DNA of 63,143 nucleotides, filler included, from Bacteriovoracaceae bacterium (GTDB taxonomy: Bacteria > Bdellovibrionota > Bacteriovoracia > Bacteriovoracales > Bacteriovoracaceae): the NCBI GenBank assembly GCA_018649885.1. It is 4 parts of 4 records of this genome, joined end to end, with 100 filler letters (N's around TTAATTAATTAA, not from the genome) between each part and the next. Parts side by side here need not be neighbours in the genome. Positions count along the whole stretch, not along the records: positions 39,894 to 60,695 come from JABIHA010000009.1; 3 more parts are not named here. One strand, written 5' to 3'. Below the pieces are notes generated by a model, which saw only the letters and a list, made by a program, of their open reading frames with translations, made no database searches and was not told where the DNA came from. The position numbers were made by a program, and so were the translations under genes. Below are positions 25,904 through 58,164 of the stretch, piece after piece; within the stretch, counting starts at the first letter, position 1; the number at the start of each line of letters is the position of its first letter.

Positions 25904-26415
25904 TTAAGGAGAAAAAAATGAAAAGCATTACAACAATTGAAAGAATGGTAATTGAATCAATCTACTCTGCTAAAAGATCAATCTTTGAAATTTCCCAGGA
26001 CACTGACTTATCTCTTGGAATCATTAAAAACACTACCCAAGAGCTACTTAAAGAAAAAATCATTTCACAAAAACAGGGCAGCTTTTTTATCGAAAACGTA
26101 CAGTTAGAAAAATTGAATATTAAAAAAGAGGTAAAAGATATTGGAAGCTCCATGATAAAGCAGTATTTTTCAGATCGTGGTAATAAACAAAGTAAATCTG
26201 GACTCATTGTTCAAAAAATATGGATGAATACGCACCAAGAGAAAATCTTTAAGGCCCTAGTTGGCAACGTAGAAGAATATCTCAAAAATCTAAAAAATGA
26301 TCAAAAAAGCAAACCCCAAGGCAAGCTTTCAAAAAAGCAGGTAGTAATGATTGGATTCACCGAATACGGCAGCCTTTCAAACCAAATACTGGGAACACCT
26401 GCACTTTCCATGTAA
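25900..26415 (+). CDS. Winged-HTH hypothetical protein
   Basis: SIFEISQDTDLSLGIIKNTTQELLKEKII pattern; ATGA overlap with upstream gene. Confidence 0.65.
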   Translation: MIKEKKMKSITTIERMVIESIYSAKRSIFEISQDTDLSLGIIKNTTQELLKEKIISQKQGSFFIENVQLEKLNIKKEVKDIGSSMIKQYFSDRGNKQSKSGLIVQKIWMNTHQEKIFKALVGNVEEYLKNLKNDQKSKPQGKLSKKQVVMIGFTEYGSLSNQILGTPALSM

Positions 26416-41902: not shown

Positions 41903-43192
41903 TTAGATATGAGGGAATTCTTCCCCAAAAGCAGGACGAAGGTCATCTAGCCATTGTGCTGAGGGGTCATATTTAGCAAAAAATGATGTTTTAACTAATT
42001 CAGGGTTTCTGGCCTGAAGGAAACTAAGGACAAATATTTTTTCGTCATTTATTTTTGAGATGCTTTCAACGCAAACTTTTCCCACTGTGGTCGACATTGA
42101 TGGCCCCCGAACAGTCCTAGCGAGCCCACTTACATTTCTAATGGCCAATTGATAAATTTCCAGTGCGCGCTCTAGGGAAAGGCCGAAGTAGTGCTTGGGT
42201 CCAGTGTCTCTTTCAACAAACATATAATAGGGAATCATTCCCAGGCGAACCTGCTCACTCCACATTTTAATCCATACTTCAGGATCGTCATTGATATGTT
42301 TTAATACCGGAGACTGGGTTCTGATTTGAGCACCTGTTTGCCTAATATTTTCAATGGCCTGATGACAAACTTCGGTGTTGATCTCTTTCCAGTGATTAAC
42401 ATGGGCCATAAAGGCCAGGTGTTTTCCCGAATCCACTATCTTTTTAAAAAGCGCTAAAATATTTGGGGTGTCTGGTTCGTTAACGTACTTCCTAGGCCAA
42501 AAAGAAAGTGACTTGGAGCCAATTCTTATATTTTGGATATGACTCATTTCTTTTTCAAGGAGCGGTTCTACATAAAGGGCCAGGGTTTTGGCGTTCATAA
42601 ACATAGGATCGCCACCAGTGATAAGAACATCTGTGATCTCTTTATGTTCCCTAAGATAGGCCACGAAACTTTTTGCCTGGTCTGTTGCAAATTTAAGAGA
42701 AGGATCACCTACAAATTGGGCCCACCTAAAACAAAATGTGCAATAACTGTGACACTGCTGTCCTTGTGAGGGAAAAACGAGAGCCGTTTCTCGGTATTTG
42801 TGCTGCAGCCCTGGAATAGCAAAGTTATTGAGCGAGGGGACATTGGCCTCGAGCTGGTTTGCTGGGTGTGGATTGAGCTCGGCCCTAATCTCACTGGCGA
42901 TACCTTGAATATCAGATGGAGTATTGAGTTTATTTTCAATGGCCTCATTCATCTTTTCATAATGGTGCTCTGAAAGCATATCTTTTTGCATGAAGGTCAA
43001 TTTGAAGATGGGGTCATTTTCCAAATCTTGCCAATTAATTAATTTCTCAGCAACGTAGTTGTTAACTCTAAAGGGCAGCACGTGGCCCACAACTTGAATG
43101 GACTGCTTTGTTTCATCTGATAAAAGCTTATACTGAGGAAGCTGATCTATTGTTTTGATGGTGTAAAATTTAAACTTTTGGCAAAAGGTCAT
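41903..43192 (-). CDS. KamA-family radical SAM protein (lysine 2,3-aminomutase-like)
   Basis: HKYRET, CHSYCTFCFR, DVLITGGDP, QSPVLKHIND. Confidence 0.9.
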   Translation of the reverse strand: MTFCQKFKFYTIKTIDQLPQYKLLSDETKQSIQVVGHVLPFRVNNYVAEKLINWQDLENDPIFKLTFMQKDMLSEHHYEKMNEAIENKLNTPSDIQGIASEIRAELNPHPANQLEANVPSLNNFAIPGLQHKYRETALVFPSQGQQCHSYCTFCFRWAQFVGDPSLKFATDQAKSFVAYLREHKEITDVLITGGDPMFMNAKTLALYVEPLLEKEMSHIQNIRIGSKSLSFWPRKYVNEPDTPNILALFKKIVDSGKHLAFMAHVNHWKEINTEVCHQAIENIRQTGAQIRTQSPVLKHINDDPEVWIKMWSEQVRLGMIPYYMFVERDTGPKHYFGLSLERALEIYQLAIRNVSGLARTVRGPSMSTTVGKVCVESISKINDEKIFVLSFLQARNPELVKTSFFAKYDPSAQWLDDLRPAFGEEFPHI

Positions 43193-47472: not shown

Positions 47473-48279
47473 ATGCAAAAAAATGCAGTAAAAAACCTGG
47501 TTGTTACTTTTGTTTTGGCCATCGGTCTAATCTCATCGCAAGATGGTTTTGCTAGGCATAGTTTTAGCAAAGGCAAAGTAAATGACAGTAAAATTGTTAA
47601 AACAACGGATCTGAGTGAAATCAGCACTGGAGCAGCAAGAGCTGATAACAGAAACTCAAGAACAAGAAGACCTAGAAACAGAAATCCAAGGGCCCGGCCT
47701 CGAAACAGAAACCCAAGAGCACGGCCTCGAAACAGAAATCCAAGAACAAGAAGAGCTAGAAACAGGAACCCAAGGACACGAAGAAATAGGAATAGGAACA
47801 GGACCCCAAGGACAAGAAGACCTAGAAACAGAAATCGTCACGTCCACAGAAGAAATGTGAGAGGCCGGTGGCGCACGCATAGACACACTGCTCCTGCTAG
47901 AAATCACGGGCGGTTTAATCGCATCTTCAACCATCATAATAGATGGAGTCGAGCTCACTACTTTTGGAGATCAATTCCTAGGGGCCACTGGTGGAAAGAC
48001 TGGATAATGTCACCAGCGCCAAGAGGGTTCATGGGCTACCGTGTTTTCAATGGCTACCCATACTTTGTATACAATGGTTTCAGACACCGTTACTCGTCAG
48101 TTGATCTATGTGACTACGATCTCATAGACAGCTACTCTGATACAGTCGAAAGCTCGTACTATGGGCTTCGCTGTTCTCAGGCATATGACCAATGTGCTTG
48201 GGATAGGGATATCTACAATGATGGCGAAAGAGATTTTCGTTATTTTTGTGCAGAAAAAATTGATAGGTATTTTTTGTAA
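47473..48279 (+). CDS. Secreted protein with RNRNPR repeats and Cys-containing C-terminal domain
   Basis: Signal peptide; repeated RNRNPR(A/T)R units; His/Trp-rich linker; four-Cys acidic C-domain. Confidence 0.85.
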   Translation: MQKNAVKNLVVTFVLAIGLISSQDGFARHSFSKGKVNDSKIVKTTDLSEISTGAARADNRNSRTRRPRNRNPRARPRNRNPRARPRNRNPRTRRARNRNPRTRRNRNRNRTPRTRRPRNRNRHVHRRNVRGRWRTHRHTAPARNHGRFNRIFNHHNRWSRAHYFWRSIPRGHWWKDWIMSPAPRGFMGYRVFNGYPYFVYNGFRHRYSSVDLCDYDLIDSYSDTVESSYYGLRCSQAYDQCAWDRDIYNDGERDFRYFCAEKIDRYFL

Positions 48280-52990: not shown

Positions 52991-53848
52991 CTAGTTTTTG
53001 GAATACTCTAGCAATCGATCTAGGTCATTTATAATTATTCTCTTTTCTATTTGTGATATTATATTTTCATTTCGAAATTCCGTTAAAAAGCGGATGGCCG
53101 TTTCACAAGAAGTGCCAATTATTGAGCTCAAATTCTCCCTTGACAACCATAAATCAAAGCCTTTTTCGGCAAAGTTTTCTTCTGAAGATCTCTGTTCATC
53201 TTCAAAAAGTTCTATTAGCAGTGAAGCCATTCTTTGCCTTACATTTTTTTGATTTCTTGAAATATATTTCTCTCTTAGCTCTTGAGTCTCATTGATAAGC
53301 GATTTATAAATAAAGTTTGAAACTGCTTGGCTTTTATCCATCAAATTTTTCATGACACGATAATCTAAAAAAACTACTGTGGAGTTTTTTAAACAAGTTG
53401 CTGTTGTGGTGTGACAACCATAATCAAACAACCATTCATGGCCAATGATACTCCCCGTCCTCAGGAGCCGGATAATGCACTCATTCCCATTTTTACTTAA
53501 TTGAGAAATTTTAAATACACCACTTTCTAAATAAAAAACTCCAAAGGCTGGTCCACCCTGAACAAAAATGTTCTGTCCTTTACGGTAGTTATTCTTAACT
53601 CCCAATACTTCAATTTCCTTAATAAGCTCGTGGTCATCGATATCTAGAATATTTTTTCTAACTGGCATGCTCCTCGGTGGCAACATTGTAATATTCGACG
53701 TCTGCTCACTTTGATAGGGAAATTGGGGGTAGTCATTAAAACCTTTTTTTGCGGGTATTTTATTTGGCATAGTAATCCTTTTGAATTTTTGAGTTTCATA
53801 TGTGGCAATGTAACTCTTATTAAACCTATCCTTCACCACCAAGTTCAC
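52991..53848 (-). CDS. CRP/FNR-family transcriptional regulator (true start uncertain)
   Basis: cNMP-like domain (YRKGQNIFVQG, SGVFKI, GSIIG), VRQRMA, LSRENLSSIIGTSCETAIRFL HTH. Confidence 0.92.
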   Translation of the reverse strand: MNLVVKDRFNKSYIATYETQKFKRITMPNKIPAKKGFNDYPQFPYQSEQTSNITMLPPRSMPVRKNILDIDDHELIKEIEVLGVKNNYRKGQNIFVQGGPAFGVFYLESGVFKISQLSKNGNECIIRLLRTGSIIGHEWLFDYGCHTTTATCLKNSTVVFLDYRVMKNLMDKSQAVSNFIYKSLINETQELREKYISRNQKNVRQRMASLLIELFEDEQRSSEENFAEKGFDLWLSRENLSSIIGTSCETAIRFLTEFRNENIISQIEKRIIINDLDRLLEYSKN

Positions 53849-55453: not shown

Positions 55454-56491
55454 TTGGAGGCAATTCGAGCTGTGGTCGAACTTGAAATAGAAAATCACTT
55501 TGGAAATATATTATATTCAAAATCGAATGGAATGAAATCTGTTATTGAAAAAGTATTATCAGTTGCCCAAACAGATTCAACAGTATTATTAACTGGCGAA
55601 TCAGGGACTGGCAAAACGATGTTTGCCAAGAAGATACATGAACTTAGCAAAAGAAAAAAAAACGAATTTGTAAGTATTCATTGTGGAGCAATACCAGATA
55701 CTTTAGTCGAAAGTGAATTCTTCGGACATGAAAAAGGCTCATTTACAGGTGCTATTAAGAAAAAATTCGGAAAGTTTGAGTTAGCAAATGGAGGGACAAT
55801 ATTTCTAGATGAAATCGGGACGATTTCCAGAGCTACCCAAGTCCGGCTACTTCACGTACTACAAGAGCGATTTATTCAAAGGGTTGGAGGTGAGGTTAAT
55901 ATAGATTTAGATATTCGAATCATTGCTGCAACCAATAGTGATTTAAAACGCAGAGTTATCGATAAGACTTTTCGAGAAGACCTCTACTTTAGACTTAATG
56001 TCTTTGAAATTCATATTCCACCTCTGAGGGAGCGTATTGAGGATATTGAGGACCTATCACTTGCTATTTTAAAGCGTCTTGATGATGTATATGGAAAAGG
56101 GATTAGAGATACTTCAACTAATGTTAAAAAGGCTTTTAAGCACTACTCATGGCCAGGAAATATCAGGGAAATGGAAAACTTGATTGAGAGGGCATATATA
56201 CTTGAGAGCTCTCAAATTCTTAATTCGAAACATTTTCCTACGAGTATCTTCGAAACAAGGCCTTTTTCAAAATCTAGAATTGGGATATTTCCATCTTTGA
56301 ACCTAAGCAAAGCAAGAAAAAATGCTCTTGACTCATTTGAGGTTAGATATATTCGAGAACTTTTAGAAAAAACTGAGGGGAACTTACAAAAAGCTTCCAT
56401 AGAATCAGGGGTAAGTGTTCGACAGCTTCAAAAGTTAATATCAAAAAATAAAATTAACAGAAAAAATTATGTCGCTAACTCTAGTATCTAA
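55454..56491 (+). CDS. Sigma-54-dependent activator (AAA+ and Fis HTH) lacking an N-terminal sensory domain
   Basis: [36 protein letters not shown]-terminal HTH; AAA domain begins ~15 aa after the start. Confidence 0.93.
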
Positions 56492-56621
56492 AAATCTCAA
56501 CCAAAAAATTCAAATATTTTGATGATTTAGAGTGAGGAGAAGCTCAATTCTGACCACTATCAATTCTAATTTTGAGATCATTCATATTGCTTTTATGTTT
56601 TTAGTGTCTAGAATAGCACTT

Positions 56622-57365
56622 GTTTGAAGGTAGCGAAGCTAGCTGATCCTCCGTAGGTGTAAGTCCTACCGAAAAAGGGGTCTCATGATTTTCGCGACTT
56701 CCACCACAGGTTGAGAAGGCGACTTTTTAATTTGATGCTGGTGAGTGAGGGTCAAACCTCGGAAGTCAATCAACAGGTTGTAGCTAAAGCGAACCCGTTT
56801 ACCTTGATGAGTGCTGAGTCTTTTTCAAACGAGACGAAAGCTCATACTGCTTACTAAGCCATGAGACATGTGCAGTAGGTGGATTCTTCAAGGATAAGGG
56901 ATGACATGTTGAGAAGGATGATCAGTGAAAGCTCGGAACTGCTTAAAAGTTTGGGAAGAAGATCAATATTTTTCCCAATAGCAATGGAGATAAGGTTCTA
57001 TTTTTAGCGAAATGGAAGTTGAAACCTCTTTTTGTACGCTTTTAAGTAGGGCAGTTGAGATCGCCAAGTGTTGACGCTAAGAAAAACGAAAACTTAGTTG
57101 AGCGAGGATCTCATGAGTACGATTGGAGGATTCCTTCTTCCGATTCTAATGGCGGTACTTGAGCGTAAGCGATGGTACGAAGGGCGATGGTAAGGTGAAC
57201 GTTTTTTGGTGTATGTGTTGATCCACTTAAACTAAAAGGCTGAGTTGAAAGCTACGTCTGAAATGTCAACTCAACAGCCGTACTGGGGAAAACCTAATGT
57301 GCGGTAAAAAAGGAAAGGAGGCGGGGGATTTGTTTCGTTACAGTCCCCCACCATCTCTCCTTTCA
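56622..57365 (+). ncRNA. ORF-less group II intron (ribozyme), bacterial class E-like
   Basis: 5' GTTTG..GCGAAGCTAGCTGATCC pairs with GATCAGTGAAAGCT (56920-56933); domain V CAGCCGTACTGGGGAAAACCTAATGTGCGGTA (57275-57306) with AGC triad, GAAA loop and AT bulge; domain VI hairpin; no RT ORF. Confidence 0.83.
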
Positions 57366-57639: not shown

Positions 57640-58164
57640 ATGCCACTTGAAAATATTATCCGAAGGGATGTGATATCAATATCAGTCAACGGAACAATGA
57701 AAGAAGCAGCTAACCTCATGCATCAAAATCATGTAGGTATGATTGTTGTATTGGGCAAATCCCATGGAATTAGAAAAATACCTGTTGGAATTCTTACCGA
57801 TCGCGATATTGTTAAATCTATTGCACAAAGTGATAATTTCAATCCCAATTGTTTAGTAGCAGATATAATGAACCCAAACATCTTCATGTGCGGCCCAGAT
57901 GATGGGATTTACGATACCATAAGAAAAATGAATAAAAATGGCATAAGACGGATTCCAGTTGTAAACAAAAAGGAAAATTTGGTAGGAATAGTTGCATCAG
58001 ATGATTTAATTAAACTATTAAGCGAAGAACTGAGTGAACTTTCACAAATTATTCCAAATAATTCCGATATAAAAAGAGATGTTAGCAAAATAAGCGAAAC
58101 ACAAAAAAGAGTTGGTAAATCACATACAAGACCTGTTTCAAGCCGGTCAATACTATTTAAATAA
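57640..58164 (+). CDS. CBS-domain pair protein
   Basis: GILTDRDIV, IRRIPVV..LVGIV; AGGAG RBS. Confidence 0.93.
   Translation: MPLENIIRRDVISISVNGTMKEAANLMHQNHVGMIVVLGKSHGIRKIPVGILTDRDIVKSIAQSDNFNPNCLVADIMNPNIFMCGPDDGIYDTIRKMNKNGIRRIPVVNKKENLVGIVASDDLIKLLSEELSELSQIIPNNSDIKRDVSKISETQKRVGKSHTRPVSSRSILFK

Follow-up and report, generated by a model that had tools for sequence, protein, structure and literature searches.

Between a sigma-54 activator gene and a CBS-domain gene of a Bacteriovoracaceae bacterium lies an unannotated stretch that a preliminary description had read as a group II intron lacking an ORF, with an intact domain V (DV) but no obvious branch-point A. The locus raises the question of what such an RNA is for, and whether it is still an intron, a selfish element, a relic or a gene in its own right. 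It was studied within a window (the whole stretch of DNA analyzed, 63,143 nucleotides) that consists of four contigs joined together. The element is carried by contig C39 and, as a search of its own genome revealed, is present there in a single copy.

Identity and architecture of the RNA

A search of the whole window against Rfam gave no match at the gathering score. At a relaxed threshold, the group-II-D1D4-4 model matched positions 56651-56788 with 36.3 bits (E 3.5e-6; gathering score 49), and this model scored above 49 in the homologues L029 and L145. RF00029 gave no match to DV of this copy, even at the relaxed threshold. The element was more stable than 20 of 20 shuffled sequences (fold z = -7.4), and six domains with conserved pairing were traced in the normal order from DI to DVI, with DVI reduced to a hairpin. 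Together with the sub-threshold Rfam match, the fold and the conserved domains uphold the identification as a group II-like structured RNA; its intergenic position was also confirmed. The features of the locus are the following:

55454..56491, + strand, sigma-54 activator gene (PF00158), upstream and outside the unit
56628..57362 (3′ end approximate), + strand, RNA body, ORF-less and group II intron-derived; starts A-G-G-U-A, predicted last base U, 5′ register taken from canonical relatives with known junctions
56630..56631, + strand, epsilon (G3-U4), pairs with epsilon-prime GC at 56737-56738; 70 of 70 cells paired, 35 of 35 members
56633..56935, + strand, Domain I (Ia 56653-69, Ib 56670-94, Ic 56701-43, Id 56770-56912)
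56680..56687, + strand, alpha (Ib loop), pairs with alpha-prime 56860-56867 in the DId3 hairpin loop; covarying, 82% of cells
56939..57052, + strand, Domain II; basal stem paired in 94% of cells in 35 homologues
57053..57056, + strand, J2/3; gamma A, G and U at 57053-55, the third base being U versus A in canonical relatives
57057..57112, + strand, Domain III; basal stem paired in 99% of cells in 35 homologues
57114..57273, + strand, Domain IV; ORF-free, conserved multi-helix fold
57276..57305, + strand, Domain V; AGC triad, G-U wobble, AU bulge, GAAAA pentaloop
57312..57362, + strand, Domain VI remnant; hairpin without branch A, no U-tract in this copy
57640..58164, + strand, CBS-domain gene (PF00571), downstream, 278 nt after the predicted RNA end

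The DI closing pairs (56633-56648 with 56920-56935) hold, as do DII and DIII, whose basal stems are conserved as listed. The "GA linker" that had been placed after DII (57057-58) belongs to the first strand of DIII, and J2/3 is A-G-U at 57053-55. In DV, the AGC triad and the AU bulge are as first described, but the loop is the five-nucleotide GAAAA and not GAAA; the triad A is unpaired in this copy. DIV is ORF-free, and its fold is conserved in homologues: two-sided changes were found in 30 of the 44 consensus pairs among 13 close members, the first four pairs of the basal stem (57114-18/57269-73) are kept in 13/13 of them, and its motifs are common to the family and to canonical ORF-less relatives. 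The letters of the DIV hairpin proposed earlier, TGAGTTGA/TCAACTCA, are present, but it is paired in only 38% of homologue cells and competes with the conserved basal stem. RNAalifold suggested that nt 5-9 pair with the strand preceding DV; this was rejected because the DIV basal stem explains those columns better (80% versus 70%). The lack of a bulged A in DVI can be seen in the sequence; the 8-bp basal-stem register GAAAGGAG/CTCCTTTC, however, is specific to this copy and is paired in 51% of homologue cells.

Both the 5-nt DV loop and the position of alpha-prime at the DId3 hairpin tip are features of class IIE/IIF as listed in the consulted part of PMC3753933. The boundaries are not the GUGYG 5′ and AY 3′ ends: the RNA starts AGGUA, keeping G3-Y4, and ends UU, and its relatives start NNGYA. 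A search for members that combine this DV with an IEP found none in 120 metagenome loci and 40 genome loci. These observations support a branchless, ORF-less group II RNA of IIE/IIF type.

The 5′ junction

The position of the 5′ end depends on how the first bases of the locus pair with DI. Two short elements are involved:

56622..56627, + strand, IBS1 (GUUUGA), nearly the whole predicted 5′ exon; 6/6 Watson-Crick pairs with EBS1 in 31/35 members
56825..56830, + strand, EBS1 (UCAAAC), in the loop of the DId3 hairpin 56816-56835

At least five of the six pairs form in 33 of the 35 members, against about 3/6 at distant offsets, and each of the six IBS1 types is best matched by its own EBS1 loop. 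Among held-out metagenome members, at least 5/6 pairs were found in 10 of the 10 that could be anchored (one may duplicate L043, and four further loci had no anchor). A cut after 56627 also puts bases 3-4 of the RNA on epsilon-prime, a pairing present in 35/35 members. The same 5′ register is found in canonical relatives, as a head-to-tail tandem in genome G542 and at L210, where a canonical intron lies inserted between DV and DVI of a host intron that carries an RT, and the EBS1 of the inserted intron matches the host bases before it. Judged by these pairings and registers, the true 5′ end of the intron is A56628 and GUUUGA is the 5′ exon, and the bases GUUUG that had been taken for an atypical intron start are part of IBS1.

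Seven divergent loci that have the EBS1 hairpin (L135-138, L140, L141 and L145) showed no full EBS1-IBS1 match on visual inspection, and an additional 5′ hairpin is present in five divergent loci. Cleavage of a leader therefore cannot be the function of the whole family. Five loci, L136, L137, L138, L140 and L141, are of a divergent sigma54 type with an extra 5′ GAAA hairpin and no EBS1-IBS1, and DV is altered too in L136 and L140.

A family of ORF-less RNAs in Bdellovibrionota

When 61 related genomes were searched at the DNA level, two others proved to carry ORF-less homologues. A DV pattern run over GTDB contigs returned 40 loci: 24 full-length family members, 4 truncated ones and 12 canonical-type introns from other phyla, the last two groups being left out of the 35-member set used here. 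The pattern matched 27 of 401 genomes of the phylum and 21 of 237 of the host family (one match, with two mismatches, is probably due to chance), and three genera were positive in 4/4 genomes. A covariance model of the 5′ 130 nt, which does not include DV, matched in 23 of 151 genomes; its strong matches fell in 19 genomes, all of which also have DV. The four genomes with weak matches were set aside: their introns are ordinary ones of different types, with an RT wherever the locus extended to an ORF. In all these counts the genomes are related and not independent, and carriers are taken as Bdellovibrionota although some MAG labels differ. No match to the element was found in plasmid or phage collections, nor in viral contigs.

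Family members are 48-72% identical to this copy, and two-sided changes occur in 75 of the 104 consensus pairs. In DIa-c, all 27 of 27 pairs show such changes, and 95% of cells are paired against 66% in shuffled and 37-48% in slid alignments. A tree of 55 RNAs places the 40 family rows on one side of a 100/99 branch and the 15 canonical rows on the other, the sister group being canonical ORF-less IIE/IIF-like introns, some of them nested in RT-bearing introns. By this comparative evidence, the element is a member of a conserved ORF-less RNA family of Bdellovibrionota and neither a lone mini-intron nor a relic. The family was not found as such in Rfam, and no description of it was found in the literature searched, which was largely without subscription papers and in which motif lists in supplements could hold it.

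Promoter motifs and gene neighborhood

A promoter-like motif lies directly in front of the RNA in most members. In this copy it consists of two parts:

56587..56614, + strand, predicted sigma70-type promoter; -35 TTGCTT 56587-92, 16-nt spacer, -10 TAGAAT 56609-14
56572..56585, + strand, CRP/FNR-like box abutting the -35; TCA kept 2 nt before TTG in clade A

The predicted start site is 56620-56622. In clade A, 12 of 12 members share TTG, a 16-nt spacer and xAxxxT in the same register, ending 7 nt before IBS1. A matrix built without this copy ranked its promoter first of 10.9 million genome positions, and none of the 25 other genome sites scoring above 11 bits is followed by GTTTGA. A scan with a generic promoter consensus did not list the conserved promoter of this copy, and a strict sigma70 pattern missed both of two held-out clade-A members, one of which scored 22 on the matrix. 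In clade B, a looser sigma70-like motif was found 8-11 nt before IBS1 in 11/12 members. Clade C has TGGCA-N7-TGC 16-17 nt before IBS1 in 9/9 members (background 2e-5 per position), a motif that we take to be of sigma54 type from its consensus; it is also present in 8/8 held-out clade-C-type loci, and GGCA-N7-TGC in 8/8 divergent loci. An earlier sigma54 pattern had the wrong spacer and was replaced by this corrected one. With the motif so close upstream, the predicted 5′ exon is only 6-8 nt long here and up to ~13 nt in clade C.

The arrangement of TCA and TTG in clade A resembles a class II CRP/FNR site, and a Crp/Fnr regulator gene is found in the window at 52991-53848. Genes found around the clade-A copies are CBS, Crp/Fnr, HSP20-like, HPF-like and archease-RtcB; the window genes and archease were named by Pfam and the others by resemblance. 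This neighborhood suggests that the clade-A copies may sit in a stress or low-oxygen regulon, and from the CRP/FNR-like box we infer that low oxygen or stress would induce the RNA. The gene upstream differs among homologues, and the order RNA-CBS recurs in L039, L052 and L092.

Other features of the window were recorded in passing. A 268-aa ORF at 47473-48279 has a signal-like start and an Arg/Asn/Pro repeat (RNRNPR), and a KamA-like ORF of radical SAM type at 41903-43192 lies beside an aminotransferase-like ORF, both named by resemblance. The contig ends (39645-39793, 60548-60695, 1-141 and 63020-63143) share repeats of 120-150 bp with many contigs and are probably collapsed IS ends.

Presence in RNA datasets

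The stretch was found in 19 sequencing runs, four of which are RNA (seawater metatranscriptomes from three studies). Near-identical RNA contigs cover 56634-57314, 56658-57309, 56638-56897 plus 57153-57303, and 56710-56862; the small-share RNA run X17 covers 153 nt only. In the 1.3 kb upstream and the 1 kb downstream, no near-identical RNA cover was found, only short pieces running into unlike sequence, which does not prove the flanking genes silent. In the study that supplied two of the RNA runs, the DNA-run word shares were 0.79 and 0.64 against 0.56 for the element alone, so the DNA of those populations continues into the flanks. The element thus appears as a discrete RNA in metatranscriptomes. 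The RNA contigs carry no information on strand, start, end or level, and their ends (56634, 56638; 57303-57314) are a weak hint at the ends of the RNA.

A proposed leader-cleaving ribozyme gene

Group II introns of class IIE splice by hydrolysis, need EBS1-IBS1 and not EBS2-IBS2, and their DI and DV suffice for hydrolysis, according to the consulted part of PMC3753933. An exon of six nucleotides should therefore be enough. The reading that we put first, at an even chance of being right, is that the locus is a domesticated ribozyme gene whose RNA likely hydrolyzes its own leader and persists as a linear RNA. Transcription would begin at the promoter just in front of the RNA, with start site and strand as predicted from the motif. 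EBS1 would then bind the first six bases of its own transcript, as the covarying EBS1-IBS1 pairs suggest, and the leader of 6-8 bases would likely be cut off by hydrolysis at the predicted cleavage site 56627/56628. What is left, a stable linear RNA of ~735 bases, would be the likely selected product, rather than a spliced mRNA. As for a later role, the most probable, though weakly supported, is that of a stress-phase RNA whose freed EBS1 and active site could act on other RNAs with GUUUGA.

Of the options offered in the preliminary description, a domesticated ribozyme came closest, although not in the form of processing the transcript of the island from upstream: the RNA has a promoter-like motif of its own, and the transcript predicted from it starts with the exon as its first 6-8 nt. 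Several features speak against a leader-cleaving gene, namely the AAC triad in 13/35 members, the U at the third base of J2/3, the unpaired triad A, the conserved terminal U and the absence of a U-tract terminator. Regarding the triad, a double change from AGC to AAU was inert in another intron in the part of PMC7641739 that was consulted.

The 3′ end and a possible second splicing step

None of 43 family members has the canonical branch and end motif, whereas 46 of 62 canonical relatives do; branch A has been lost throughout the family. By homology, the 3′ end is U57362, where 18 of 19 clade-A rows have U while neighboring positions vary. This terminal U may mean that a 3′ splice site is still used, and it opens the reading, unlikely in our view though well worth weighing, that the element is a 5′-UTR regulatory intron that still splices fully by hydrolysis, its 6-8-nt exon being ligated to the downstream leader (here that of CBS) and the excised linear intron being a stable by-product. 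The mostly A gamma of clade A would fit this, as would a candidate EBS3, A56896, that could pair with U57363. The RNA-CBS link recurs, the end of several members immediately precedes a ribosome-binding site, a U-tract terminator is absent from this copy, and in genome G133, where the RNA has been lost, the promoter leads directly into archease. Set against this, EBS3-IBS3 pairing was found in 11/16 cases, the mean of shuffles being 7.9 (p 0.056) and the EBS3 positions having been chosen by hand, and 10 of the 12 clade-B members end in a hairpin plus U-tract. The RNA-run contigs contained no joint across the element and gave no cover of the CBS gene, and the downstream start codon is usable without splicing. 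A tally of terminators over the family gave 20/43, a crude figure that probably includes false positives in AT-rich flanks and that missed L038 and L042.

Catalytic or structural RNA

The triad is AGC or CGC in 22 members and AAC in 13. A further reading is that of a large structured RNA without catalysis, a scaffold or RNP comparable in function to ROOL, GOLLD or OLE, that keeps the group II fold and in which EBS1-IBS1 is only a pseudoknot closing the 5′ end. We regard this as rather improbable for the element as such. The 13 AAC triads, the conserved ornate DIV and the discrete RNA seen in metatranscriptomes speak for it, and so do the divergent members that lost EBS1-IBS1 and gained a 5′ hairpin yet keep promoter and fold. 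In this copy, however, AGC, the G-U wobble, the bulge, epsilon and the G of J2/3 are all retained, every one of the 19 genomes with a strong DI-only match has DV, and the IBS1 register equals that of true splice junctions. For the 13 AAC-triad members and the divergent clade, the structural reading is the favored one. The AAC-triad loci (L017, L028, L040, L050, L053, L099-L101, L105, L109-L111 and L032) form a clade; they have mostly kept EBS1-IBS1 and have U-tract terminators, and several carry an inverted repeat (ATCTAAT-N6-ATTGGAT-like) over the -35 region, a possible regulator site.

Mobility

A trans-mobilized mini-intron had also been proposed, and a genome search for further copies and a class E RT had been suggested. 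The search gave a single copy and no group II maturase in the 92%-complete assembly, none in cis. Of 17 carrier genomes, 11 yielded no RT, among them the near-closed G130 (3 contigs, 99%) and G009 (10 contigs), in assemblies that are incomplete. The other six carriers have an RT match; among those classified, all but that of G263, only the one of G035 resembles an intron RT. Two candidate partners in the own genome were rejected. The RT on contig C141 is 24-27% like intron RTs and has no intron RNA beside it; it is a stand-alone protein of 438 aa with a YADD motif, next to a CBS gene (L002 1273-2589). The DV/DVI on contig C18 (L001 622-705) is a separate canonical relic of 39.6 bits, beside an IS-like fragment.

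The RNA loci are syntenic within genera. There are genomes in which 3-4 copies occupy unrelated sites, and in G035 two copies are identical, so the unit must move or become homogenized. In G035 and G119, the common unit of the multiplied copies starts ~50 bp upstream, coinciding with the edge of the promoter box, which points to duplication or conversion at the DNA level. A comparison with intron-less alleles had been proposed as well; in two empty alleles of a clade-C site, those of G057 and G378, RNA, promoter and IBS1 are absent together. In one further case, G133 (L286, C2 ~26165-26270), the promoter and ~20 nt of the RNA are left before archease, the body is lost and IBS1 has decayed.

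A selfish mini-intron mobilized in trans by an RT, preferring sites just after transcription starts, would account for the copies at unrelated sites, for the sharp 3′ boundary, for different promoter types at nearly the same register and for a sister group of branch-A ORF-less introns in RT-bearing introns and attC-like sites. It is nonetheless improbable, given the missing branch A, the carriers in which no RT was found, a duplicated unit that includes promoter sequence outside the predicted RNA, empty alleles without a waiting promoter or IBS1, other high-scoring promoter-like sites of the genome that lack GTTTGA, and synteny within genera. The last option of the preliminary description, a decaying relic of an old insertion, would agree with the sub-threshold Rfam scores, the missing RF00029 match, the patchy distribution (21/237 family genomes), one internally deleted copy (L142) and the lost copy of G133, but is very hard to reconcile with compensatory change in every domain at 48-72% identity, conserved promoter motifs and RNA contigs in three studies.

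The canonical ORF-less introns (L210, L160, L194, L022, L041, L149/L152, L037, L026) are themselves a widespread lineage, and the structure of their DIV is conserved. Part of them have inserted into other group II introns, behind DV or within DI, others occupy attC-like sites, and there is one head-to-tail tandem. Among 69 metagenome loci, none had an RT in DIV.

Comparison with known systems

Relative to the IIE/IIF introns of Nagy et al. 2013 (PMC3753933, consulted part), the element shares the 5-nt DV loop, alpha-prime at the DId3 tip and, as predicted here from sequence, reliance on EBS1-IBS1 and, with IIE, a hydrolytic first step. Unlike them, the family has neither IEP nor branch A, has a 5′ exon of 6-8 nt and a promoter-like motif of its own, often uses DVI as a terminator and conserves an ORF-free DIV. 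The element would thus work like a IIE hydrolytic ribozyme and yet differ from a mobile intron in branch A, boundaries, IEP and empty site. Its canonical ORF-less relatives (L210, L022, L041, L044, L160, L194) are alike in DV sequence, DIV motifs, EBS1 position and 5′ register, but have retained branch A and end in AC or GC, and their insertion sites are RT-bearing introns or attC-like sites.

The intron C.te.I1 of Clostridium tetani, as described in the consulted part of PMC4024640, is likewise ORF-less and domesticated in a genome without IEP, but it splices a protein-coding mRNA alternatively in one species, whereas the present family is phylum-wide and sits at the transcript start. HYERs, in the parts of PMC11754743 and PMC12990946 that were consulted, are ORF-less, hydrolytic and have a 6-nt recognition site, properties that are predicted here. 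They are of class IIC with DNA cleavage shown, while the family is IIE/IIF-like, promoter-coupled and of putative activity; instead of a IIC fold and a position after a terminator, it has IIE/IIF features and lies after a promoter-like motif. Circularly permuted group II RNAs (PMC8637638, consulted part) are also bacterial group II-derived RNAs with an unpaired triad A; here, in contrast, the order from DI to DVI is normal and the bulged A is absent. With ROOL, GOLLD and OLE (consulted parts of PMC5737381 and PMC12990946) the family has in common that they are large ornate bacterial ncRNAs. The element, however, has no Rfam match to them and its fold is plainly group II.

Implications

Because DV of this copy does not score, pipelines based on RF00029, such as that in the consulted part of PMC8919778, could miss the family. 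A branchless, ORF-less lineage extends across several families of one phylum, mostly where no RT was found and behind different promoter types, and would offer compact IIE-like scaffolds with a 6-nt guide. One bolder and doubtful extension of the leader-cleaving reading is a "pro-ribozyme" gene of predatory bacteria, in which the leader would block the substrate site and self-cleavage would free a protein-free endonuclease for GUUUGA-bearing RNA or ssDNA, sister clades having drifted into non-catalytic structural RNAs. If this were true, a bacterial group II intron would have turned into a trans-acting RNA gene, a step assumed for the origin of snRNAs. The domestication of an intron into a stand-alone RNA becomes testable here with simple in vitro assays, and the family and its relatives would provide a natural series that leads from a nested mobile intron to a promoter-driven ribozyme and on to a probably non-catalytic RNA.
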